Part shown: positions 16,276 through 43,878 of the stretch, one piece after another | Numbering within the stretch: the stretch's first letter is position 1 | How the letters are laid out: each line of letters starts with the position of its first letter | From: a virus | Taxonomy: Duplodnaviria; Caudoviricetes | Length of the DNA: 64,000 nt | Strand: one strand, 5' to 3' | Virus record (IMG/VR): IMGVR_UViG_3300024259_001623 | Made by a program: the position numbers and the translations under genes | Notes under the pieces: model-generated | Databases searched by the model: none | Seen by the model: only the letters and a program-made list of their open reading frames with translations | Told to the model about the DNA's origin: nothing

Positions 16276-17208
16276 TTATAATAAAATATCATAAAAATTC
16301 TTTCTTTTTTCATTTAACTTGGGATCATCCCATATCTTAGAATTATGACATATATTCTTGCAACCGCATTTTGAGCATTCATAATCATCTTTATTCAAAG
16401 GACGCGGCGGTGGCAATAATTTCAAATCTGTCATTTCATTCATAGATTTTGCCTGTCTTCTGATCAACTTAAATACAGTATCAGTATTTTTCTCGATTTT
16501 GTAAGCAGCAGTATCAGAATTATTTTTATTCTCATATATCAGCAAACCAAACTCAACAGGTAATAAATTAGCATAAATTGTCAACTGAACTCTGTAATCT
16601 AAGCTGGGACCGTGCTGCAAGATCTTTTTGAACTTAAAATCGTTACAAGTCTTCATATCAATAACAAAAGGATTTTTTGGCAACGACTCCATGCTAAAAG
16701 CTTTTGTGATATCCCCGAATCTATCTTCTTTCAATACAGAAAAATCTATAATCATATCAGCATGACCATAAAAATTCAATTCCTTGTCTACTACAGATAC
16801 TTCATTGTAATGGAATTTGTTACAATCACAACTTTCGCATCGTTCTGGTTTGAAACAGCCAAGAGGATCATCTTTTCCAAATATTTGCCCACATTTCAGA
16901 TTAGCACATTTCCAATATCCTCTAAGCACACCGATGGCCTCCATATACTTAGCCCATCTGTCATGCATATTATGGCCTTTATCGAATAAACGAAGTAACT
17001 TGCTTTCGTGACATTCTTCTTCGACTTGGATATATCCTCTTTCTGCATATCTTAGATACTGCATACATCTTAAACATTTTCCAAAAGCAGATGGATGATA
17101 TATCTCAAATCCTCTGGGAGGTCCATTAGAACTTCTCCATCTAAGAAAAGTATCAACTACTCCCATAACTGCTCTTATATCTGGTGTTACAAATGCTTCA
17201 TTACTCAT
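16276..17208 (-). CDS. Cas4-like PD-(D/E)XK exonuclease
   Basis: HPSAFGKC, G..MH, GHADMII, IDMKT, QLTIY, C-terminal CSKCGCKNIC; extra internal Cys cluster. Confidence 0.8.
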   Translation of the reverse strand: MSNEAFVTPDIRAVMGVVDTFLRWRSSNGPPRGFEIYHPSAFGKCLRCMQYLRYAERGYIQVEEECHESKLLRLFDKGHNMHDRWAKYMEAIGVLRGYWKCANLKCGQIFGKDDPLGCFKPERCESCDCNKFHYNEVSVVDKELNFYGHADMIIDFSVLKEDRFGDITKAFSMESLPKNPFVIDMKTCNDFKFKKILQHGPSLDYRVQLTIYANLLPVEFGLLIYENKNNSDTAAYKIEKNTDTVFKLIRRQAKSMNEMTDLKLLPPPRPLNKDDYECSKCGCKNICHNSKIWDDPKLNEKRKNFYDILL

Positions 17209-17948
17209 ATTAGTTCCTTAGTATTTTCTCTACATTTTCTTAAAAGTTCTATAAACGCTTGGCTTCCATTTTCATTGACAAAAACGTCTGGATCTTTTTT
17301 ATCTGGCATTATGACTGGTATTATATCAATTTGAAAAATATCAAATCTTCTTTCTTTAGCCATTTTAACAACTTTTGCTGCCGCTTTTTCACCAGCCATA
17401 TCTCCATCAAAAACCAAAAATATTTCTCTGCAATATCTACTTAACATTGCTATATGTGACATCTTTAAAGTACTACTCATTACACCCACAGTGAACCTAA
17501 ATCCGCTGGCCGAAAGATATTGTACATCAAACTCTCCTTCGACTACTATGGCTTTCTTTTTTTTCAGAATATGTTCTTTTGCAACATTTAATCCATATAA
17601 TATATTCGATTTAGGAAAGCTCTCATGAAAAAACTTCCTTTTTGCTCCATCTCTCCAATCTCTCGAAGACAACGCAACCAAATTGTCATATTGATCGTAT
17701 ATAGGAAGAACCATCCTTCCAGAAAACTCATGATTTACGCCATTTAAATTCATTACATGATCTGGCATATATCCTATATGAAAACGATCTTTAATAATCT
17801 CTATCTGATCATCAGTAAATCTTCTTTTATCAGATTTTAGATAAGCAATAGCTTCTGCACCCTCATCTTGCTCAATAACCTCTCTAGATAGGGCCAGAAC
17901 CTTCTCTCGCTCTATATCTGGTAATCTGTCTCGCCATAGCTTCTTCAT
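17205..17948 (-). CDS. dnaG: DnaG primase catalytic/TOPRIM domain (no zinc-binding domain)
   Basis: GRMVLPI.D, LYGLNVAK, IVVEGEFDV, VFDGDMAG, KDPDVFV; N-terminal CHC2 finger absent. Confidence 0.88.
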   Translation of the reverse strand: MKKLWRDRLPDIEREKVLALSREVIEQDEGAEAIAYLKSDKRRFTDDQIEIIKDRFHIGYMPDHVMNLNGVNHEFSGRMVLPIYDQYDNLVALSSRDWRDGAKRKFFHESFPKSNILYGLNVAKEHILKKKKAIVVEGEFDVQYLSASGFRFTVGVMSSTLKMSHIAMLSRYCREIFLVFDGDMAGEKAAAKVVKMAKERRFDIFQIDIIPVIMPDKKDPDVFVNENGSQAFIELLRKCRENTKELI

Positions 17949-19724: not shown

Positions 19725-21023
19725 TTATAGCAAATCCCAGCTTGCTTCTTTTGCTGCCGACTCTAAATTAACATCTTTTACTTCTACTTCCGCTTTTACT
19801 TTTTCATTTGCCTTTTTGACAGAAGCAGTTAACTGGTCTAAAATATCAAACTCCTTCAACTCTTCTGGAATTTCTTTTTCTTCAACGACCTCAACTGATT
19901 TTTCTTCTATCTCGGCAACAATATCTTTCTCATGATCTTTTGGATTAAAATGGTTTTTAGTATTCACATCGCCCATCCTTTCAATATTTTTATTTGGAAG
20001 TGCAATTGTCAACTGTCTAGACAAAGTTTCATAAGCATTATCTAAGTTTTTAGACACGATTTCAGCAGAACGGTGTATCCCTTTAAGATCAGAGAAATAC
20101 AATCCAAAATCACTAAGATGTTCATATATAACACCTTCCTGTTTAACTGCTGGCTTTGCATATTCTACTCTAGCCAACAACCCTTTCAAAAACTCATATG
20201 CTGTTTCAAACTTGTAATACTGACTATTGCAATTCATTTGAATTTCTTTGACTCTATCTCTCCAAGCCTGTACCTCTTGCATCCTTTTATGGATTTGAGG
20301 CAAATCATATATAGGAACTGATACATCTACCTTTGCGTCAATCAACTCCTGAGTATACCGCTCAATAGGAATCATATCACTTTTCAAAACACGATTCAGG
20401 ATATTAGCCTTCTCCCTATAAAAAGAATCGAACTTAGGAGAAGGACTGGTGAGATTCCATTCATCTAAATTAACGATAGGTTCAATAGAACCTGTATGTC
20501 CATCTTCAGATACCTCTTCTAGATATTTTTCAGTGACCTCTTCTACAACATCAGAATTATCACCATCTTTTAGATCAATACACTCAATAGGTTTTCCATC
20601 CGTTTGAACCCATCCAACCTTTTCAGGATATTTTACTGCAACCTTCAGAGCATCACCTAATGCCTCAACATCATCTCTAATAGGGAAAGTCCCTGTAAGA
20701 ACTTCTTCCACAGGAGGCTCTTCTACAATCTCTTCCTGATTAGTCTCTTGTATAATGGTTGCAATATCATCGTCCATAGATACAGATTCTGTTAAAATAT
20801 TAGAAGGAACTTCTTCTACAGCATCTGCCTTTTCATCTTTTTTAACTTCAAGCTCTTTACCATCAACGGTGCCAACCATTTCTTTTACCATATTAACCTT
20901 GTCTTCAAAAGACTCCTTATTTTGAGCATCACTCAACTCTCCATAGATTTCATCATCTGATGAATGTTTTTCTTTTGGATTAATCCCAAAAATGTCTTTT
21001 ATTTTATCAATATCTTGTGCCAT
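19725..21023 (-). CDS. Hypothetical protein (acidic N-terminus, helical C-terminus)
   Basis: 432-aa ORF with RBS; no recognised motif. Confidence 0.65.
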   Translation of the reverse strand: MAQDIDKIKDIFGINPKEKHSSDDEIYGELSDAQNKESFEDKVNMVKEMVGTVDGKELEVKKDEKADAVEEVPSNILTESVSMDDDIATIIQETNQEEIVEEPPVEEVLTGTFPIRDDVEALGDALKVAVKYPEKVGWVQTDGKPIECIDLKDGDNSDVVEEVTEKYLEEVSEDGHTGSIEPIVNLDEWNLTSPSPKFDSFYREKANILNRVLKSDMIPIERYTQELIDAKVDVSVPIYDLPQIHKRMQEVQAWRDRVKEIQMNCNSQYYKFETAYEFLKGLLARVEYAKPAVKQEGVIYEHLSDFGLYFSDLKGIHRSAEIVSKNLDNAYETLSRQLTIALPNKNIERMGDVNTKNHFNPKDHEKDIVAEIEEKSVEVVEEKEIPEELKEFDILDQLTASVKKANEKVKAEVEVKDVNLESAAKEASWDLL

Positions 21024-21428: not shown

Positions 21429-23432
21429 TTAGAATAACGATTCTGGACCTACGCCTCTTTTAGCAGATGCTTTCATATCTTTTCTCAAAGATCCAAATTT
21501 ACTTGCTAACATTTCCGCGAAATCTTGTTTTTTAATTTTTTGACCTTTAGGTAATTTTTTATTAAGTTCTTTAAATTCATCATTAAAGAATCCTGCTTCT
21601 GCCAAAGACCTAATAGCTCCCAGGTCTACCTTGCTAGTATCTGTATTGAATGCTATATCTCTCAAATTATCATACGGAGCATTCTTAGCCAATTCTGTAG
21701 CTGTTTCAATTCCTACGCCTTCACATACAATACTAGGCATTATCTCTGTGAATTCTACTCCAGAGTTTCCGTCTTTCTTCTTAATTATCTTATATTCTAC
21801 TCCACAAGAATTCAATTTCTTAGGAAGAATTTTTATATCAAACTTTTTACAGTCTCTTTCTAATTCCTTAACCTTATCGTACTTCTTACGAGTACTTTCT
21901 ATATTCATATACGCACACATAAATTCATCAGTATAATTCGATTTCAAATATGCCGTCATATAAGAGTCATAAGCATAGCAACATGAGTGAGCCGCATTAA
22001 AACCATAAGCTGCGAATGGAGTAATAAACTTCTCCCAATAATCATCTGCTATTCTTTCAGGTAAGCCTCTTTCCACGGCACCTTTAATAAACAAACCTTT
22101 ATACTTATCAATAAGATTTTGTTTCTTCTTACCAATACCCTTAATTAATACATATCCATCCGTTTCAGAGAAACCTGCTAGTTCTTTACAAATTTGCATA
22201 ACCTGTTCTTGGAAAACTAACACTCCATAGGTCTTATCTAAAATATGCTTGACGTGCTTCTCGATAACTGGATGGAAAAAGTCTACTGTCTTAAAACCCT
22301 TTTTCCTAGCACAATATTCTGGAATCGAAACCATAGGCCCAGGTCTATATAGTGCAATAGCGGCCATAATATCATTAAAACAATCGACTTCGATTTCTTG
22401 TATAGTCTCTTGCATCCCTCTATTTTCACACTGGAAAATACCTGTCAGCTTACCGCTCTTATACAGATCAAAAGTATTCTTATCATCTAGAGGCAAATTT
22501 TTGATATCTATATCTATATCATAATTTTGTTTAACCATCTCGACTGTCTTTTTAATAACAGATAATGTACTGATAGCCAATATATCAAATTTTATAAGTC
22601 CCATACTCTCAAGGTCTTCATTTGGGAATTGAGTAGCAAAACCCTTATTAGAAGTTCTCAAAGGAGCAATCGTATGCAATGGAACATTAGAAATAACTAC
22701 ACCAGCAGCATGAACTCCAAAATTAGAAACAATACCTTCTATAAGTTTTGCATGATTTCTAAAACCTTTTTCCTCGAATTTATCTATATACGCTTTGAAA
22801 TCTGAACAATACTTATAAGCATCTTCGATAGTCTTTATTTTATGCTCAACGCCATCTTCATCGGCTACTTTAAGAATAGCTCCGATCTGTCTTGGCAAAG
22901 AAGCAACTATCTCAGATACTTTAGCTTCATTTTCGCTTTTATTCTCTTTGCTACCTTTGAAAAATGCATTTGCTACATCAAGTGCCTTACCGATTCTACG
23001 TATTGCAGATTTTAATTTAAGACCACCATAAGTTCCGATATTGCCGACATTTTCTCTACCGTATTTGTCAATAATATAGTCATATATTTCTTGTCTACGG
23101 AAATATTCAAAATCACTATCAATATCTGGGAAACCTGCTCTAGCGAATGCTCTTCTTTTGAGCAAAAATTCCCCATCAGGGAATTTAGCAGTCATTCCTA
23201 TATAATAAGCAGTAATACTGTTAATGGCATTGTTCTTGCCTTTTCTTTTATTCTTTTTCTTTTTCTTTTTTCTTCTTTCCCATGTGTCGTAGAATCCCTC
23301 TAATAGACTACGACCGTCAAGGCCGTCCTCTACTTCCATAAAATCTAATTCACTATCTATTTGTTTCAGTGCGCTTTCGTCAGCACCCTGAACCTCAGAA
23401 AGAATTTGTTTTCTAATTTCTTCTATTTGCAT
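21429..23432 (-). CDS. dnaE: DNA polymerase III alpha, catalytic half (palm/thumb/fingers/HhH; no PHP, no OB fold)
   Basis: PDIDSDF, HAAGVVI, KFDILAIST, GIFQCE, ALYRPGP, TYGVLVFQEQVMQI, YGFNAAHS. Confidence 0.93.
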   Translation of the reverse strand: MQIEEIRKQILSEVQGADESALKQIDSELDFMEVEDGLDGRSLLEGFYDTWERRKKKKKKNKRKGKNNAINSITAYYIGMTAKFPDGEFLLKRRAFARAGFPDIDSDFEYFRRQEIYDYIIDKYGRENVGNIGTYGGLKLKSAIRRIGKALDVANAFFKGSKENKSENEAKVSEIVASLPRQIGAILKVADEDGVEHKIKTIEDAYKYCSDFKAYIDKFEEKGFRNHAKLIEGIVSNFGVHAAGVVISNVPLHTIAPLRTSNKGFATQFPNEDLESMGLIKFDILAISTLSVIKKTVEMVKQNYDIDIDIKNLPLDDKNTFDLYKSGKLTGIFQCENRGMQETIQEIEVDCFNDIMAAIALYRPGPMVSIPEYCARKKGFKTVDFFHPVIEKHVKHILDKTYGVLVFQEQVMQICKELAGFSETDGYVLIKGIGKKKQNLIDKYKGLFIKGAVERGLPERIADDYWEKFITPFAAYGFNAAHSCCYAYDSYMTAYLKSNYTDEFMCAYMNIESTRKKYDKVKELERDCKKFDIKILPKKLNSCGVEYKIIKKKDGNSGVEFTEIMPSIVCEGVGIETATELAKNAPYDNLRDIAFNTDTSKVDLGAIRSLAEAGFFNDEFKELNKKLPKGQKIKKQDFAEMLASKFGSLRKDMKASAKRGVGPESLF

Positions 23433-23435
23433 ATT

Positions 23436-24008
23436 TTACCTTCTAGTATTTATTCTGGCATGTAGATCATTAGGTTTATCAATTATATGATCTACGATTC
23501 CCATTTTTAAAGCCTCTTTTGCAGTTATGTAAGAGTCTTTTGACATCAAATCTTTAATTTGTTTATTGCCCAAATTAGTATATTTTTTAATCAGACTTTC
23601 TAGTTGCTTTTGCAATTCTTTTGTTGCCTTGACTTCGTTATCCATCTCATGAATATTGCCATAAAAACCAGTGCTTACAGAATGCATCAAAACACAAGAA
23701 TTAGGAGTAATAAATCTCTTTCCTTTTGTTCCGCTCATAAGTATCATTTGAGCGGCACTCATAGCTTTTCCAACACAAATGGTAGCAACATCACATCTGC
23801 ACATTTTTATAGCATCATGTATAGCCAACAAACTGTAACATTCTCCACCATAAGAATCAATATACAAAAGTATATCTGACATAGGGCTTTCTTCTTCTAA
23901 ATCAATTAAACTCTGAACAACAGTTTTTACACTTTCTTCATCAATCTTGCCGTTTAAATGAATTATTCTCTTCTCTTTTGCTTCCTTAGCTGCTGTGGTC
24001 ATATTCAA
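23436..24008 (-). CDS. clpP: ClpP-like protease subunit
   Basis: YIDSYGG, CVGKAMSAA (catalytic Ser), LMH (His), EALKMGIVD. Confidence 0.9.
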   Translation of the reverse strand: MNMTTAAKEAKEKRIIHLNGKIDEESVKTVVQSLIDLEEESPMSDILLYIDSYGGECYSLLAIHDAIKMCRCDVATICVGKAMSAAQMILMSGTKGKRFITPNSCVLMHSVSTGFYGNIHEMDNEVKATKELQKQLESLIKKYTNLGNKQIKDLMSKDSYITAKEALKMGIVDHIIDKPNDLHARINTRR

Positions 24009-24023
24009 TATTCCTTTCTTAAC

Positions 24024-24419
24024 TTATGAAAATATTTCCCAGGGAAATTGTATCCAAGTGCCGTCATCAATTTTTTCTGCGTAAAAATCTGGTTTAATTT
24101 TACTAGATTCTCTATAAAACAAAGAAGCTGTTTTAAATCTTTTATGATAATTAGTTATAGTCGCTCCAGAATCCACAATGTCGTCAATTAAAATTGGCTT
24201 TACAGTATAATTGTCAATATTAGAGATATTATCATGAATATAAATATGATTATCACTAATATGACAAAGACATGTTGCAACAATAACGCCACCGCGAGGA
24301 ATACCCATAACACCACTACTTTCTTTTTTCATAACGTCAGAAAGTAAATATACCATATTATGAAAATAGTCCCAAGATATTTTTCGTACAGGCTGATCTT
24401 TCGCTCTCATCTTAGCCAT
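24024..24419 (-). CDS. Type I phosphoribosyltransferase (xanthine/hypoxanthine-guanine PRT-like)
   Basis: GIPRGG, LIDDIVDSGAT PRPP loop, PDFYA, WIQFPWE. Confidence 0.85.
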   Translation of the reverse strand: MAKMRAKDQPVRKISWDYFHNMVYLLSDVMKKESSGVMGIPRGGVIVATCLCHISDNHIYIHDNISNIDNYTVKPILIDDIVDSGATITNYHKRFKTASLFYRESSKIKPDFYAEKIDDGTWIQFPWEIFS

Positions 24420-24434
24420 ATTGTTCCTCCAATC

Positions 24435-27095
24435 TTAATAACGATCAACTCCGCCAAGGTCATCGTCAACTTCTCTTTCTTCATCTATATCATTATCAAA
24501 AACATCCACTGATACATCTTCATCTTCATCATCAAAGAAATCAGAATCTTTTATGAAGTATTTCGTGTCAAATCCCAAGAACCTTTCCCAGATAAGGTCA
24601 TAATCCAGAGGATCGACTCCATAACATATATCTAAACAATGCAATAGAACGCTTGCATAACCTGAATTATGAACTACAAAAGAAGATGTTAAATAATTAG
24701 ATTCATTTTCTACAGTCAAATCATAAACTTCTTTTATATTTTCAACTTCTGCTATACTTCTAACTTTTAATAATATCCCATTATCAACCTGTTTATACGT
24801 AAATTTTTTATTGTTTTCTATATAGATAGTTTTTGGAGAAACGATAACATAACTATTTTTTGCATTTCTAAATGCTTCTCTTTTATCGATTCTTTCATAC
24901 AAACTCAAAGAAGAAGGCACACCAATTTTTCTATAAATATATCTGATTTGATTAGCCAACTTTTTAGAAACTGTTGTATAACTCAACTTATATTTACTTA
25001 ATGATCCATCTCCATCATGCAACCCAATTAATAAAGATTTTATTTTTTCATAATTATTTTCTTTTATAAATAGCTCTGGTATATATTTAGAAGAAGCGCA
25101 AAAATTATAATCTTTAAACATTTTTTTAAATAATGCATATATGAATTTACTTTTTATATATACCTGAATTAAATTTTTGCTTACATGTTTGTTTATGTAT
25201 ATACTAAAATTATATTTATCAAAATAATTTATAATCTTGTATATTTGATCTTCTTCATTACTATTAAAAGCGAATGCTATATAACTCTTATCTCTTCGTG
25301 TAATCCAGCCATCAGATATAAACTTACCTACAACATAAAAAAAATCATCATCAAATGATATATATCTATCATGCACTAAATCACTCAATATATTCTTTTT
25401 ATTCATAGGATTTAATCTCATAGAATGAACTTGATGTTTATCACATACCATATCACTATTATTTTGAAATTCACCAAAATCTATAAATTTGTTATTATTC
25501 TGCTTAAAATTCTCTTTGACATAAGGGACAAAAACCCAATCTCCAACTTCTAAATCTTTTGCATTAATCCAGCACATATGATTACCTGTTGGATCTTTAT
25601 ATCTTTTCATGCGTTTTTTACAAGAATCACTATATTTCTCCCATCCATCTGGTCTTACTAGTTTTTCAACCAAGATTTTATGATCTTTGGTAACAGTTAC
25701 CCCACACGAATCTCCATAATAACATTTGATATTTAAAAGCGTTTCATCTTTAATATTATATTTATGTTTTTTCACAACTTTTTGTTTTTTACCGCTTAAA
25801 GATATAACATTATCTCCTTCCTTAATATCTTTAATTTTTTTTGTTTCCCCCTCTCCCATTACAATACCAACATCACCTGACAAACATCCTCTACCTGGAC
25901 CTGTCAAAATATCAGAATCATTTGCAAATTTCATTATATCTTCTTCGATCAGAAAATATGTTGCAAAATCATATCCATTATTTTCCCAAGCGACTCTAAC
26001 ATCTTTCAACTCTTTTTTCAACGTTGCTACGTGGTCAGGACTTTTATCCCATCCTCTTTTCTTCATACCATCCATAGCTTTTTTCTTCATATATTCGTAT
26101 GAGCCTTCAAACTCTCCCATATCCGCATATTCTTTTGGTATCTCTATATTAGGCAATCTCATACCGCCAAATAGATTCTTGGTTATATCTTCTGTATCTA
26201 TTCGGTCTGACAAAGCAACAGTGTTCCTTAAACATTCTGGAGAAAATCTAAATATCTTTGCCATTTCCTCTGCACTTTTAAGATAGAACTCTTCATACGG
26301 ATGCTTTAAATGCTTTGGATTTGTGATACAATTAGATGTTGACATGCACATAAGAACTTCATGAGATTTTGCGTGTTCTTTTAAAAGATAATGACAATCA
26401 TTTGTCGCTATGACTGGAATGTCCATTTCTTTTCCTAGCTTGAAAATCTCTGGAAGAATAAGAGCTTCTTTATCTATACCATGATACATTGCCTCAAGGA
26501 AAAAATCTTCTCCAAAAATATCTTTTAATATACCGCAAATATCTTTTGCACTATCATATCTATCATAAAGAAGATTAGCATTGATTGCACTAGATAAGCA
26601 AGCGCTGCCTATGATTAAGCCCTCAGAATGCTTCTCTAACAGTTCTAAATCTATTCTAGGGGTGAAATAGAATCCATCAACCCAAGACTTCTCAGACAGA
26701 GTACACAGGTTCTCATACCCTTTATAGTTTTTCGCCCATATATTTAAATGCCTATTACCCTTCTGCCCATCAGGCTGATCGTCTTTGCTTTTATATTCCA
26801 TCTTTCTAGATAAATATACTTCACATCCCAAAATGGGCTTAATTGGTTTATATGGAATGTCATCTCCGTTCTTATCTTTAGTAGCAGAGCATTCTTTGAT
26901 AAACTTGATCCAAGAACCTATAGTTCCATGATCTGTTATAGCCAATGCCGGAAATTCCATTTCCCTTGCCTTTAAGACCAGCTTCTTTAGCTGAGACAAT
27001 CCATCAAACTGGCTAAATTCAGAATGACAATGTGCGTGAACAAAATCACTGTTTTTGAACTTCATATTTTTCCTTCTATGTTTGTTACTGTTCAA
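24435..27095 (-). CDS. dnaE: DNA polymerase III alpha, N-terminal half (PHP domain), intein-containing; probable start 27065
   Basis: HAHCHSEFS, ITDHG, GCEVY, TNDCHY, GPGRG-[intein]-SG, VDPLDYDLIWERFL then acidic tail; lacks PDxD. Confidence 0.92.
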   Translation of the reverse strand: MNSNKHRRKNMKFKNSDFVHAHCHSEFSQFDGLSQLKKLVLKAREMEFPALAITDHGTIGSWIKFIKECSATKDKNGDDIPYKPIKPILGCEVYLSRKMEYKSKDDQPDGQKGNRHLNIWAKNYKGYENLCTLSEKSWVDGFYFTPRIDLELLEKHSEGLIIGSACLSSAINANLLYDRYDSAKDICGILKDIFGEDFFLEAMYHGIDKEALILPEIFKLGKEMDIPVIATNDCHYLLKEHAKSHEVLMCMSTSNCITNPKHLKHPYEEFYLKSAEEMAKIFRFSPECLRNTVALSDRIDTEDITKNLFGGMRLPNIEIPKEYADMGEFEGSYEYMKKKAMDGMKKRGWDKSPDHVATLKKELKDVRVAWENNGYDFATYFLIEEDIMKFANDSDILTGPGRGCLSGDVGIVMGEGETKKIKDIKEGDNVISLSGKKQKVVKKHKYNIKDETLLNIKCYYGDSCGVTVTKDHKILVEKLVRPDGWEKYSDSCKKRMKRYKDPTGNHMCWINAKDLEVGDWVFVPYVKENFKQNNNKFIDFGEFQNNSDMVCDKHQVHSMRLNPMNKKNILSDLVHDRYISFDDDFFYVVGKFISDGWITRRDKSYIAFAFNSNEEDQIYKIINYFDKYNFSIYINKHVSKNLIQVYIKSKFIYALFKKMFKDYNFCASSKYIPELFIKENNYEKIKSLLIGLHDGDGSLSKYKLSYTTVSKKLANQIRYIYRKIGVPSSLSLYERIDKREAFRNAKNSYVIVSPKTIYIENNKKFTYKQVDNGILLKVRSIAEVENIKEVYDLTVENESNYLTSSFVVHNSGYASVLLHCLDICYGVDPLDYDLIWERFLGFDTKYFIKDSDFFDDEDEDVSVDVFDNDIDEEREVDDDLGGVDRY
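24666..25886 (-). mobile_element. Contiguous intein (407 aa) with in-frame LAGLIDADG endonuclease in dnaE N-half
   Basis: Starts CLSGD after GPGRG, block B VTKDH, LAGLIDADG-like GKFISDG and GLHDGDG, ends FVVHN with Ser+1. Confidence 0.93.
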
Positions 27096-32517: not shown

Positions 32518-33165
32518 CTATACCAAATCAGCCGTTTTTTCCATACATCTTTTTTCCCACATTGCATATCTCAAAATAAAAGGAGACTGTCCGATACTCT
32601 CATCTCCATCAAGTATAAATTCATATATCTTACACAATGAGTCTATATTTTCAGATAATATCAACTTATCAATTTCTTGATAAAGTTTATCTAAAAATAT
32701 TGCTTCTTCATCGTCAAATTCTACTCTTTCTAAATAATTATATCCCAATAAACTAACTTCCAATGATATATCATACATCATATCTGATGCATTTTTCATT
32801 GATTCTTCTTCTGATTCTTTCCTAATCTTCCCAATTATAAAATTCAATTCATCATTTTTATTGATATCTAAATCGCCACCAAAAAACTTAACAGACTGAT
32901 GCCAAGGAATATTTTTTAGTTGAGCGTTCAGAGATACTACATCTCCACTTCTCTTACAACCAAAGCAATAAAAATTATCATATTCCCCTGAATCATATAC
33001 TGCTAAAGAAGGATTATTATCATTATGATCAGGGAACGGACAGACATACATATATTTGCCCTTATATTGATATTCATAATTAATTCCTTCAGAAGATAAA
33101 AAATTCACTATCTTATTGGTAGATCTTATATTCTCTATGACATATTGACTTATTTTTTCAGACAC
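32518..33165 (-). CDS. Stand-alone DnaG CHC2 zinc-binding domain protein
   Basis: CPFPDHNDNNPSL..Y....FYCFGCKRSGDVV..; no TOPRIM. Confidence 0.88.
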   Translation of the reverse strand: MSEKISQYVIENIRSTNKIVNFLSSEGINYEYQYKGKYMYVCPFPDHNDNNPSLAVYDSGEYDNFYCFGCKRSGDVVSLNAQLKNIPWHQSVKFFGGDLDINKNDELNFIIGKIRKESEEESMKNASDMMYDISLEVSLLGYNYLERVEFDDEEAIFLDKLYQEIDKLILSENIDSLCKIYEFILDGDESIGQSPFILRYAMWEKRCMEKTADLV

Positions 33166-41121: not shown

Positions 41122-43878
41122 TTATTCTTCTTGTAATTCTTTGATATTAAACTGAGGTTCAGTCTTGTAAATTCTTTTACGAGTATCAGAATGCTTTGTA
41201 AGATATTCACAGTGGTCCTTGAAATCTATAACCAGAGCAGATTCCTTTTTGTAATCGCCGCTCGTAAATGGCCTGAGAACTCGCCCAACCCTCTGTAAGG
41301 CCCTCGTTTTGCTTTTACCACCGCCAGCTAGTATTAACGTGTCTAGGGGCCTACAATCGACTCCTTCATCGAATATAGAGGTAGCTATAGTTATCGCAGC
41401 ATCCCTATCTCTATTTCTCATCTTAGATAGATGGGCTTTTCGCTGCTTCCCAGAATGGACTCCATGCAAAAATGTACTTCCATCTATCATTTCACTTAAT
41501 AAATTACCATGATTAACTTGCTGGCATAATATCAAAATATTTTTACCATTTTCTTCAAAAGATTTAGCCATATTGGCAATATATTCATTTCTAACAGAAT
41601 TTTCTACTATTCCCTGTTTATAATAAGACTGGTAATTAAACAACTTACCAGGCATCCCTTTTCTAATAGGAACAAAATAAATATCGGGCTTGACGAGATA
41701 ACCTCTTTCGATCAAAAAAGAAGCTGATACATTTGCTATTTCTCTTCCGAAACAGGCATCGATTAATATATCATCTCCCTTGTCTCGCATAGGAGTCGCT
41801 GACATACCATACCTATATCTTGCATTACTAGAATAATCAGATATAACTTGACATGTATCTGATGCCCAATGCTGACAATTATGAACTAAAATATCATTAG
41901 CAAAAAAACAATGAGTGTCTTCAACTGTTATGTCATAAACATTATCTGATCCGCAATCTTCGATACTACTTATGCCAACGTAATTTGTATTCCATGTGTT
42001 TAGAGATGTGGTCTTTAACAACTCCGTAGATATTTCCTCTTGCTTCTTTCGATATATACAAGACATAATATTTTTTTTTGTATTTATGGATTGTTGATTT
42101 TCCATATTTGGCATTAAACCAATCAGCGCACAATTCGACTTCTGGTAAAGAAAATCCTTCTGTATGTAATCGTAGGCTATTATGAGTTGCTGAACCATCA
42201 TCTCCGATCCACCAAGCCAAGCCAACAGGTCCGATGAGATCAAGCCACTCTTTATTGACTCGTTTTTTACCATCTTTATATACAATCTTATAAATTCCAG
42301 AAAAACATGACGAACAAGGTGTATAACAAGAAATTGTGGTATCTCCATACCCGCCATTCGGGGATATATAATATTTAGGAGATAATCTGTCAAGAAAATC
42401 TGCCTTATACTTTGCCCAACCTTCTTGACATAACCCATGATTGTACACCAATCTTGGAGTTTTACTTCTTTGTGAAGGAAATGATAAACAAGAATCTCCC
42501 AAAAGTGTGCCAAAAATTGCTTGTGATTCTTTTTTAAGTAATGACAATCCCCACAAGTTATTCCTTTTATCATGTCCATAAATGTATTTTCTGTATTTTT
42601 TTGCCCCTTTATTTTTAATAAATGATTCCAATGATGTATATTTTGGCCGCACTTTTCCTCCGCAGCCGCATTTACATTTCGGAGCATTCTCGACAAACTC
42701 TTGGAAAACTTTTTTCCAATCCTCATTAGATCTTTTTCTGATTTGATGACCGAGGATATACTTTGGGTATCTACTCGGGCTTCGACCAAAGACTTCAATT
42801 TTTCCTCCGCAACCACATCTGCACATGACAAAATCTTGTCTGTTTTTTTTATGTCTCCTGCTTGAACCCATCCTTTCTGCGTTTTTATTAAATGATTTTT
42901 TGTACATTTTATATATCTACCTGAATCTAATACTATTTTAATAATAGAGTGTCTACCCTTATACATAAAATTAGTTATTTTCTTCCATACAACACTAGTT
43001 CCATCAAAACTAAGTATATCCTCTCCAATAAAATTAGAAAGTTCTGACATTTTTTTTCTACCACTTCTTGTGACAACTATAGAATCACCAGTTATGCATT
43101 CATCAGCAATGAATCCCTTTGAAGACATAATAATATCTAAAATGTCTTTACGCCTTTCAGATAAAATATTCTTCTCTGCTTTACTAATTTTCTTTGTTTT
43201 ATCTTCTTCGTCAAATCTGACGTATTTTTTACCACAAGCCAAAACAGCAGTTTGGATTGTCATAATAGTTATATCTTGAACATCAAATTTTCCACCACCG
43301 ACTATACCAACCTTAATAGGAATATTATTATAACGCAAAAACTTTTCAAACTCTTCTTTTGTTTGAGTTAAAAGATCTACAGATGGCACATAAAAAATAA
43401 ATGGAGATATTCCTAGTTCTGCAATAAGACCAGCAGCAATAGAAGTTTTTCCACCACCAGTGGCTACTTTGATAATGCCCCTTTGCATTTTAGAAGCTTG
43501 ATGTATAATAGTCTGCTGATAGTCTCTTGTTTCAAAATCATTAGACATATTCAATGATATATTTTTTGCTACAGGTTCTCTCTCATCGAATATGTCAAAT
43601 GGAACAGAATTTTTTACAAAATGATCTCTAGCTTTATTAAAAAGACCAGTTGGGAAATGCGTTCCATCCTTTTTTATTGCACATTTACAATATTTTTTGC
43701 AATAACAAAGGGTAGACTCTATGCCGTCCCATTTTGCATCGGAGCCTCTGACTTGAAAAATGGCCCCTTCTGGACGGTATCCTAAAAGTTTTCTCAAACC
43801 CTGATAAACATCAGAATCTAATCTTCCCTGAATATAAGTCTTTGTATTGGTTACTAATAATTTTATTTTATTTTTCAT
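41122..43878 (-). CDS. SF2 DExH helicase (UvsW/XPB/RadD-like), intein-containing
   Basis: RDYQ, ATGGGKT, ADE-[intein]-CQH, SATP, ATSIFDEGVD, QRVGRVLR. Confidence 0.92.
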   Translation of the reverse strand: MKNKIKLLVTNTKTYIQGRLDSDVYQGLRKLLGYRPEGAIFQVRGSDAKWDGIESTLCYCKKYCKCAIKKDGTHFPTGLFNKARDHFVKNSVPFDIFDEREPVAKNISLNMSNDFETRDYQQTIIHQASKMQRGIIKVATGGGKTSIAAGLIAELGISPFIFYVPSVDLLTQTKEEFEKFLRYNNIPIKVGIVGGGKFDVQDITIMTIQTAVLACGKKYVRFDEEDKTKKISKAEKNILSERRKDILDIIMSSKGFIADECITGDSIVVTRSGRKKMSELSNFIGEDILSFDGTSVVWKKITNFMYKGRHSIIKIVLDSGRYIKCTKNHLIKTQKGWVQAGDIKKTDKILSCADVVAEEKLKSLVEARVDTQSISSVIKSEKDLMRIGKKFSKSLSRMLRNVNAAAEEKCGQNIHHWNHLLKIKGQKNTENTFMDMIKGITCGDCHYLKKNHKQFLAHFWEILVYHFLHKEVKLQDWCTIMGYVKKVGQSIRQIFLTDYLLNIIYPRMAGMEIPQFLVIHLVRHVFLEFIRLYIKMVKNESIKSGLISSDLLAWLGGSEMMVQQLIIAYDYIQKDFLYQKSNCALIGLMPNMENQQSINTKKNIMSCIYRKKQEEISTELLKTTSLNTWNTNYVGISSIEDCGSDNVYDITVEDTHCFFANDILVHNCQHWASDTCQVISDYSSNARYRYGMSATPMRDKGDDILIDACFGREIANVSASFLIERGYLVKPDIYFVPIRKGMPGKLFNYQSYYKQGIVENSVRNEYIANMAKSFEENGKNILILCQQVNHGNLLSEMIDGSTFLHGVHSGKQRKAHLSKMRNRDRDAAITIATSIFDEGVDCRPLDTLILAGGGKSKTRALQRVGRVLRPFTSGDYKKESALVIDFKDHCEYLTKHSDTRKRIYKTEPQFNIKELQEE
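41878..43098 (-). mobile_element. Intein (407 aa) inserted in helicase motif II
   Basis: CITGDS start, block B KCTKNH, block F VYDITVED, block G NDILVHN, Cys+1; central about 290 aa has no endonuclease motifs in this frame. Confidence 0.92.
41966..42907 (-). mobile_element. LAGLIDADG homing endonuclease nested in an alternative frame inside the helicase intein
   Basis: Same strand, -1 frame; CxCGCG twice, IFGTLLGDSCL, L.P.GLAWWIGDDGS, LHTEGFS. Confidence 0.88.

Follow-up and report, generated by a model that had tools for sequence, protein, structure and literature searches.

The stretch of viral DNA analysed here, the window, is 64,000 nucleotides (nt) of IMG/VR virus record IMGVR_UViG_3300024259_001623 (Duplodnaviria; Caudoviricetes), an uncultured, huge phage of about 434 kb, whose replicative, bacterial-type DNA polymerase DnaE is carried on two genes. 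We consider it likely that the two polypeptides, called here the N-half and the C-half, assemble non-covalently into one OB-less, DnaE-type replicative polymerase with PHP proofreading and a composite active site. This interpretation builds on the anatomy, conservation and synteny of the genes, on the existence of fused relatives, on an intein within the N-half, and on the structural likeness of the head of the C-half to a palm subdomain. The split is a real and conserved feature and is probably functional. To our knowledge, the catalytic part of a replicative polymerase is nearly always one chain; in an entire clade of very large phages, by contrast, the nucleotide-binding motif and the catalytic aspartates are on different proteins, and the clade appears to have toggled between the fused and the split form several times.

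In the history that we propose, an ancestor would have tandemly duplicated the N-terminal, nucleotide-binding subdomain of the palm. The first copy (copy 1) would have retained the GRGS motif, the second (copy 2) would have lost it and stayed joined to the catalytic DxD strand, and the gene would then have broken in the flexible linker between the copies, leaving an N-half with PHP and copy 1 and a C-half with copy 2, the catalytic sheet, thumb, fingers and HhH. A LAGLIDADG intein would first have to be spliced out of the GRG/S loop of the N-half (slashes mark insertion points). The resulting protein of 469 amino acids (aa) would then dock on the C-half: its PHP domain would touch palm and thumb, copy 1 would meet copy 2, and the segments GFDTKY and RRAFA would form a short beta ladder between the chains.

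The break within the palm and the intein of the N-half

All genes of the DnaE stretch lie on the minus strand, with both DnaE halves co-oriented. As the preliminary description of this DNA, made from its letters alone, had stated, the halves are separated by a phosphoribosyltransferase (PRTase)-like gene and clpP. The features of the locus are as follows:

24435..27065, minus strand: dnaE N-half, with PHP, the N-terminal palm subdomain and the intein (Pfam PHP, E 4e-41; DNA_pol3_alpha profile positions 1-69)
25887..27065, minus strand: N-extein, with the predicted PHP exonuclease domain (all nine metal ligands intact) and, as far as the invariant GRG (aa 401-403), palm copy 1
24666..25886, minus strand: intein of 407 aa with LAGLIDADG homing endonuclease, at GPGRG/S (Pfam Intein_splicing, LAGLIDADG_3 and Hint)
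24531..24665, minus strand: folded part of the C-extein (aa 811-855), with S+1, the GS-helix, the ERFLGF helix and FIKDSDFF (Pfam profile positions 66-100)
24438..24530, minus strand: acidic C-terminal tail of the N-half (aa 856-886), ending LGGVDRY
24024..24419, minus strand: PRTase-like gene between the halves, 131 aa (phrog_8995, E 1.7e-13; Pfam Pribosyltran at 24 bits, below cutoff)
23436..24008, minus strand: clpP between the halves (Pfam CLP_protease, E 2e-47), also found in the closest relatives, loci L001, L002 and L006
21429..23432, minus strand: dnaE C-half, 667 aa, with palm copy 2, catalytic strands, thumb, fingers and HhH (DNA_pol3_alpha positions 67-260; DNA_pol3_finger, E 3e-51)
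23133..23432, minus strand: head of the C-half (aa 1-100), putative degenerate duplicate of the palm subdomain, GS-less, with invariant N68 and an INSxTAY helix
23112..23129, minus strand: PDIDSD (aa 102-107), the first two catalytic aspartates (invariant columns in alignment A2, 108 C-half sequences)
22584-22592, minus strand: KFD (aa 281-283), the third catalytic aspartate (invariant in A2)
21432..21470, minus strand: conserved, probably disordered C-terminal tip of the C-half (alignment A2; the last block of the fused model has a predicted local distance difference test score, pLDDT, of 50)

The open reading frame (ORF) of the N-half spans 24435-27095 (886 aa) and is open back to a TTG at 27095. 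Its true start is likely the ATG at 27065, giving 876 aa, because this ATG is preceded by an AGAAGGA ribosome-binding site (RBS) and matches the N-termini of relatives. Instead of the single polypeptide of a canonical DnaE there are two genes, 1 kb apart, each with its own RBS and stop. The gaps between N-half, PRTase, clpP and C-half measure 15, 15 and 3 nt, each gene has its own Shine-Dalgarno sequence, and no convincing terminator, group I intron or other Rfam family was found between the genes; the four are probably co-transcribed as one operon.

The Pfam domains PHP, DNA_pol3_alpha, DNA_pol3_finger and a weak HHH_6 are spread over both halves, which together show the domain set of a DnaE. 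Profile PF07733 (DNA_pol3_alpha) is divided between them, with positions ~66-100 matched in both: the intein-free N-half of a relative (P0122) covers positions 2-98 and the C-half positions 65/67-260. When the fused relative P0014 (1106 aa) was compared by phmmer with Taq Pol III alpha, residues 362-420 corresponded to Taq 398-455 (GPGRGS...ERFLN) and residues 538-1053 to Taq 458-943 (RVSMPDIDTDF...), and a 117-aa insert separated the ERFL helix from the catalytic DxD strand. Likewise, GRG and PDxDxD are 41 aa apart in canonical enzymes and ~145 aa apart in this phage family. The divided profile, the alignment and the spacing therefore place the break inside the palm, between the GRGS nucleotide-binding motif of the N-half and the PDIDSD and KFD aspartates of the C-half, and not at the border of PHP and polymerase, where the preliminary description had put it.

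The motifs of the nucleotidyltransferase are thus all present, on two polypeptides: GRG/S (aa 401-403 plus S811) on the N-half, PDIDSD and D283 on the C-half. The catalytic pair in PDIDSD is either D103/D105 or D105/D107, the third aspartate is D283 in KFD, and all are invariant in the alignments; their location in the C-half had been recognised at the outset. The G[GS] motif defines Pol-beta-type nucleotidyltransferases. Because GRGS and the catalytic aspartates sit on different halves, the active site would be composite, and neither half should polymerise alone. The N-half had been proposed to be a separable proofreading subunit, a view that does not hold as it stands, since this half also contains the invariant GRGS portion of the polymerase active site.

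The PHP metal site, described earlier as apparently intact, does have all nine of its ligands (H22, H24, D31, H56, E92, H116, C166, D233 and H235). They are conserved across 121 N-half sequences, and GRG is invariant in 121/121. The trinuclear zinc centre of PHP is bound by nine residues (PMC5636811), namely five His, three Asp/Glu and one Cys (PMC5636811, PMC3919608), and the domain is predicted to have exonuclease activity. The C-terminal OB fold and tau-binding domain of bacterial replicative DnaE1 were not found. For the OB domain, whose lack had been noted before, Pfam gave no match, the model of the fused relative ends in helices past HhH, and the family ends ~60 aa after HhH.

Within the N-half we found a complete intein of 407 aa (aa 404-810), with C404, block B TKDH, VVHN/S811 and two LAGLIDADG motifs (FISDGW and LHDGDGS). 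Its flanks read GPGRG/CLSGDV ... VVHN/SGYASV, that is, it sits within GPGRG/S. A cysteine at position 1, TxxH, a terminal HN followed by Ser, LAGLIDADG motifs and insertion in a conserved motif all identify it as an intein by sequence. Over its whole length it is 36% identical (E 8e-70) to an intein at the same GRG/S site in the fused relative P0245, and its GC content is 25.3% versus 35.5-36% for the flanking exteins. From its end to the N-half stop there are 76 residues, and the mature, spliced N-half would have 469 aa, the size of intein-free relatives (422-494 aa). The preliminary description had reported no intein motifs at either end of the genes. The gene ends are indeed clean, and the intein inside the N-half was overlooked; likewise, the N-half does run on to VDPLDYDLIWERFL, as had been reported, and reaches it only beyond the intein. 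No split-intein parts were found at the break, where the N-half ends in DDLGGVDRY and the C-half starts with MQIEEIRKQ, with no intein Pfam matches.

Inteins are frequent in this phage DnaE family, which has at least eight insertion sites (P0259, P0276, P0294, P0373, P0021, P0252, P0121, P0005, P0006 and others). Three of the sites lie exactly at PHP metal-ligand motifs (G/CE, SA/C and ND/CH), and one N-half, P0276, has two inteins. The classical Y/CFN-type site is uninterrupted in the window (YGFNAAHS) and holds contiguous or split inteins in relatives. P0245 (L009:5001-11123) is fused at the palm, has the GRG/S intein and shows, in addition, a fractured-gene arrangement at Y/GFN: its main gene ends in an apparent split-intein N fragment, followed by a free-standing LAGLIDADG gene and a 229-aa C-terminal dnaE piece. 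The family may supply inteins with new insertion sites, including those at PHP metal ligands. In the window itself, an SF2 helicase gene (ResIII/Helicase_C, 41122-43878) also bears an intein (Pfam Intein_splicing, E 1e-16), so that the replication module has several.

The probable palm duplicate and the modelled complex

On the structural evidence, we take the head of the C-half for a degenerate, tandem repeat of the palm subdomain that binds the nucleotide, one in which the GS motif is gone (GKNN for GRGS). Alignment of this head with the palm of the N-half by hhalign gave E values of 0.12-0.16, with 64 collinear columns at E 0.12. A hidden Markov model of the canonical GS-helix, derived from 108 insert-less DnaEs, matched 107/108 C-halves in one register, with a median of 2.0 bits versus 0.84 for the 99th percentile of shuffled sequences. 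Copy 2 by itself gave no Pfam match.

The fused relative P0014 was modelled with AlphaFold2 (AF2) from trimmed alignment rows (alignment A7); joint alignments of fused and split sequences (A1, A4 and A5) were misaligned at the insert and were discarded. The model had a pLDDT of 92.8 and a predicted template modelling (TM) score of 0.89, placed the helices of the insert at 447-457, 463-478, 487-497 and 511-515, and matched the DnaE structures of Mycobacterium tuberculosis, T. aquaticus and E. coli (7PU7, 2HPI and 2HNH) at TM scores of 0.68-0.73. Its sole soft stretch, blocks 431-450 with a pLDDT of 71, is the position at which the split relatives are cut.

Folded in isolation, the insert was confident over residues 31-115. 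In an exhaustive comparison of this fold with 48,161 PDB chains, the five best were C-family polymerases without exception, each matched over its N-terminal palm subdomain, the one that ordinarily comes before the catalytic strand: 5LEW 312-410 (Z 7.5, root-mean-square deviation 3.8, 85 residues aligned), 5FKU 284-390 (Z 6.4), 5M1S (Z 6.0), 7PU7 (Z 5.9) and 9QPC (Z 5.9). The next chain, an unrelated one, had a Z of 4.5. We read the insert as a duplicate because the top structural matches all point to one subdomain of one family, and not because of the Z scores alone. Foldseek found no match of the isolated insert in the PDB at E <= 0.001, and its top non-significant rows were again DnaE. The preliminary description had spoken of a degenerate copy at the junction; the structural match to the palm subdomain bears this out, and the support from sequence is weak.

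Given that the family is an intein hot spot and that L009 holds a true fractured gene elsewhere in dnaE, the extra segments at the break might be suspected to be decayed halves of a former split intein that now serve only as a docking module. We regard this origin as very improbable. The insert is alpha-helical and does not have the all-beta HINT fold, its best structural matches are DnaE palm subdomains with no intein among the matches listed, neither the C-half head nor the fused insert gave a Hint or intein Pfam signal, and fused relatives retain the insert as an ordinary in-frame domain.

A multimer prediction had been proposed as a check in the preliminary description. We modelled the complex from chains of the window, namely N-extein 11-403, C-extein 811-886 and C-half 1-500. 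The interaction prediction score from aligned errors (ipSAE) was 0.87, versus 0.31 for the best control, three runs shared at least 84% of contacts, and the partners had a pLDDT of at least 85. The mark applied was reached by 58/80 solved complexes and 2/110 mismatched pairs, a calibration that holds roughly, since the complex was modelled with custom alignments as a differing job. The interface comprised residues 396-403 and 811-855 of the N-half and residues 32-54, 65-70, 92-98 and 101-109 of the C-half. The folded part of the C-extein (aa 811-855) was in contact with the C-half, and residues 396-403 and 811-814 of the N-half lay against the C-half strand 101-109. These contacts are consistent with a placement of copy 1 against the catalytic strand and copy 2, and with a short ladder that pairs GFDTKY with RRAFA. 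The counterparts of the ladder in the fused model are strands 421-424, corresponding to the C-extein, and 533-536. The model thus supports an assembly of the halves.

Fused and split relatives and the conserved ends

A search with the C-half returned >100 proteins of ~655 aa with 48-62% identity, on contigs of up to 505 kb from many samples, and the N-extein, used as the query, retrieved 120 proteins of 422-494 aa (about 470) with 54-71% identity. GRG, the nine PHP ligands, PDIDxDF and KFD were invariant or nearly so across the halves. The gene order was also conserved, running from DnaB, a DnaG zinc ribbon and methylases through N-half, C-half and three small or unknown genes to RecA, a Toprim primase and UvrD. 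Nucleotide searches of the region against INPHARED phages gave no match, and protein searches of the same collection found only relatives with <33% identity.

The loci form a graded series. The polymerase is one fused gene in L005 and L008 (verified under table 11), the halves are 14 nt apart in L003 and overlap by 35 nt in L007, and clpP lies between them in L001, L002 and L006, the closest relatives of the window. Only in the window, among the fetched loci, do both the PRTase-like gene and clpP lie between the halves, and no PRTase-like gene was found there in the relatives examined (L001, L003, L006 and L007). The locus L007 (NCBI GCA_040384165.1, a 377-kb contig) belongs to the subclade of the window and translates only with TAG = Gln; thus, stop-codon recoding is present within this phage group.

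A survey of related phages, suggested in the preliminary description, thus found the break in >100 syntenic relatives and few fused forms. This, together with the graded synteny, led us to reject an assembly artefact or recent decay. The foreign genes between the halves and a low-complexity poly-K run in the C-half could be taken as signs of a dnaE decaying as a pseudogene after insertion of clpP and the PRTase, or of a faulty assembly, to which we attach next to no probability: the same break, with intact motifs and with RBSs for each half, recurs in >100 relatives from independent samples, the N-half stops directly after a terminal motif common to 75 relatives, and the ORFs read through without a frameshift or an internal stop.

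In a tree built from the catalytic core (141 rows, 116 of them split), the earliest branch within the clade was P0246, which is fused and insert-bearing. The other fused forms were single tips sister to split ones, as in the pairs P0014/P0011 and P0071/P0038 (support 100 each). In an approximately unbiased (AU) test, a single fused clade was rejected (difference in log likelihood 532, p 0.00056). Because the fused forms are scattered tips next to split sisters and a fused clade was rejected, the boundary seems, on this tree, to have been opened or closed at least six times.

All insert-bearing fused relatives hold both copies of the subdomain. As these include the earliest-branching P0246, the duplication would have preceded the split, or have been independent of it, which agrees with the order of duplication and then fission put forward in the preliminary description, as does the structural duplicate at the head of the C-half. 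A further fused relative, P0242 (994 aa), lacks the insert and has kept copy 1 (WERFLAF RTAEDG KRVFARPGFPDID). It is nested among insert-bearing relatives, at a syntenic locus, and is best read as a relative that lost the duplicate. Since it keeps copy 1 only, copy 2 would be dispensable and copy 1 sufficient.

Motif-intact halves in >100 syntenic relatives, fused and split sister tips and the complex model jointly favour the two-subunit polymerase that had been suggested. The halves might instead work apart, the C-half as a self-sufficient polymerase using copy 2 and the N-half as a free PHP exonuclease or phosphoesterase. In keeping with such independence, copy 2 is contiguous with the catalytic strand like a canonical subdomain and has invariant N68, N71 and S72, the isolated insert folds confidently alone, and 1 kb of other genes lies between the halves in the window. 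We nevertheless judge this quite unlikely, given that copy 2 has no G[GS] motif, with GKNN in place of GRGS, that the invariance of GRG in 121/121 N-halves demands a function, that fused and split forms alternate at sister tips, that the insert-less P0242 keeps copy 1 and not copy 2, and that, in the model, the C-half strand 101-109 is faced by residues 396-403 and 811-814 of the N-half.

Several points count against a duplicated palm subdomain and a single enzyme assembled from both halves. By sequence, copy 1 and copy 2 are not significantly alike at the hhalign E values obtained. The best Z score of the insert is modest, and small helical domains may reach such a value through a common arrangement. 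Copy 2 also has invariant residues of its own (N68, N71 and S72). The passing score of the complex may mirror the memory that the model has of single-chain DnaE structures and so not be independent evidence, and the group put to the AU test was chosen after the tree had been viewed. Finally, we infer the assembly, the splicing and both enzyme activities, and likewise that copy 1, rather than copy 2, adjoins the catalytic aspartates and serves the active site.

If both halves do form one enzyme, the palm duplicate beside the break suggests why fission within a domain is tolerated, in that each product retains a complete folding unit. The fused P0014 and the split P0174 plus P0011 provide a natural pair for comparison. 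Such halves are also easily annotated as pseudogenes or as a bare 'PHP domain protein'.

The N-half ends in a D/E-rich tail, as first described (aa 856-886; the segment from RFLGF onward has a net charge of -16). Among the N-half endings (n = 120), 75 terminate exactly in GGxDRY behind an acidic stretch, ~7 in variants of it and ~20 in an acidic stretch without the motif; 19/120 stop directly after SDFGF and have no tail. The fused relatives lack the acidic GGVDRY tail. Apart from the N-halves, no protein of the window or of nine related loci was found to bear the GGVDRY end motif. The basic counterpart proposed for this tail, the poly-K run ERRKKKKKKNKRKGK of the C-half, is encoded by A-rich low-complexity DNA (AGAAGAAAAAAGAAAAAGAAAAAGAAT...; window 23235-23279) and is specific to this phage, relatives reading GKxGxKN in that loop (A2); its appearance is that of a surface loop expanded by slippage. 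No complementarity of charge between tail and head was found in 23 contig-matched pairs, in which the net charge of the C-half head ranged from -7 to +6, unrelated to the tail. The confidently placed contacts of the complex model did not include the acidic tail (856-886) or, apart from residues 54 and 65-66, the poly-K run (52-66), which is neutral as to their binding. With a poly-K run unique to the window, no complementarity among the pairs and tail-less N-halves in the family, the acidic-basic pairing suggested in the preliminary description is not supported as a property of the family.

One may also imagine that the GS-less copy 2 is a stand-in that keeps the C-half folded and catalytically dead until GRGS docks; as the intein sits exactly in the GRG/S loop, splicing would then gate the active site, and the tail would act as a latch or recruiting peptide. 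We hold this to be rather unlikely; if true, replication competence would depend on intein splicing and then on subunit docking.

The tip of the C-half has the family consensus KKGVxSxDLF and reads RGVGPESLF in the window. It may be a sliding-clamp-binding peptide, by its resemblance to the internal clamp-binding pentapeptide QADMF of E. coli alpha (PMC3201878). No sliding-clamp gene was identified in the window. A 432-aa gene at 19725-21023, two genes downstream of the C-half, has syntenic counterparts in L001, L003, L005 and L006; it was considered as a beta clamp and rejected. Its long N-terminal region is acidic and poorly conserved, a single block at its C-terminus is conserved, and neither Pfam nor PHROG gave a match.

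Comparison with known split polymerases and neighbouring genes

Wu, Hu and Liu are said to have described, in 1998, a cyanobacterial DnaE split together with a naturally split DnaE intein. The cyanobacterial split DnaE is also attributed to Caspi et al. 2003, as cited in PMC3919608. As in the window, two dnaE genes give one polymerase there. The cyanobacterial halves, however, are covalently joined by trans-splicing at Y/CFN in the fingers, whereas the break described here is in the palm, has no intein parts and would be bridged non-covalently.

Another parallel comes from the group 2.2 jumbo phages, in which a minimal, PHP-less Pol III alpha core is split into a nucleoside triphosphate (NTP)-binding and a Mg2+/DNA-binding protein (Iyer et al. 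2021, Viruses 13:63, PMC7824862), predicted to reconstitute one enzyme without an intein. The window enzyme is divided at the same functional boundary, with an NTP-binding and a catalytic-metal half, and likewise has no intein at the break. The group 2.2 enzyme is PHP-less, has its genes far apart and accompanies a family B polymerase, whereas the enzyme of the window is PHP-bearing and full-size, with neighbouring halves in a replication module. Furthermore, the break here adjoins a tandem duplicate of the NTP-binding subdomain and fused relatives exist, while the passages of PMC7824862 consulted mention no duplication. The window polymerase would therefore work, by analogy, like the group 2.2 split system and yet not be a member of it, since it has a PHP domain and 1 kb separates its halves. 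A split of the C-family core has thus already been described, and the PHP-bearing split form with a palm duplicate is a variant. In the literature searched, we found no description of a split PHP-bearing DnaE or of a duplicated palm subdomain. PF07733 has been given as a mark of the largest marine jumbo-phage group, with no mention of a split (Weinheimer and Aylward 2022, PMC9123017).

The polymerase resembles DnaE1-type enzymes (M. tuberculosis DnaE1 and T. aquaticus Pol III alpha; PMC5636811, PMC3919608) in fold, at the TM scores given above, and in its nine zinc ligands and catalytic triad. Those enzymes differ in being single chains that have just one palm N-subdomain, an OB domain and a C-terminal tau-binding domain, whereas the phage family has no OB or C-terminal domains; other phage C-family polymerases are likewise without them (PMC3201878). 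In fractured genes, a homing endonuclease gene lies between split-intein parts, and it is these split inteins that rejoin the pieces (Dassa, London, Stoddard and Pietrokovski 2009, PMC2677866). The window shares with these a phage or metagenomic replication gene in separately translated pieces with genes between them, and L009 shows that very form in the same dnaE family, but the palm break has neither a split intein nor a homing endonuclease gene.

No family B polymerase was found among the window ORFs scanned. The DnaG primase is apparently split too, with candidates in the window at 17205-17948 and ~32518-33165; in the relatives L001 and L003, Zn_ribbon_DnaG and DnaB genes are neighbours upstream of dnaE, and DNAG_N/Toprim has a gene of its own downstream of RecA.

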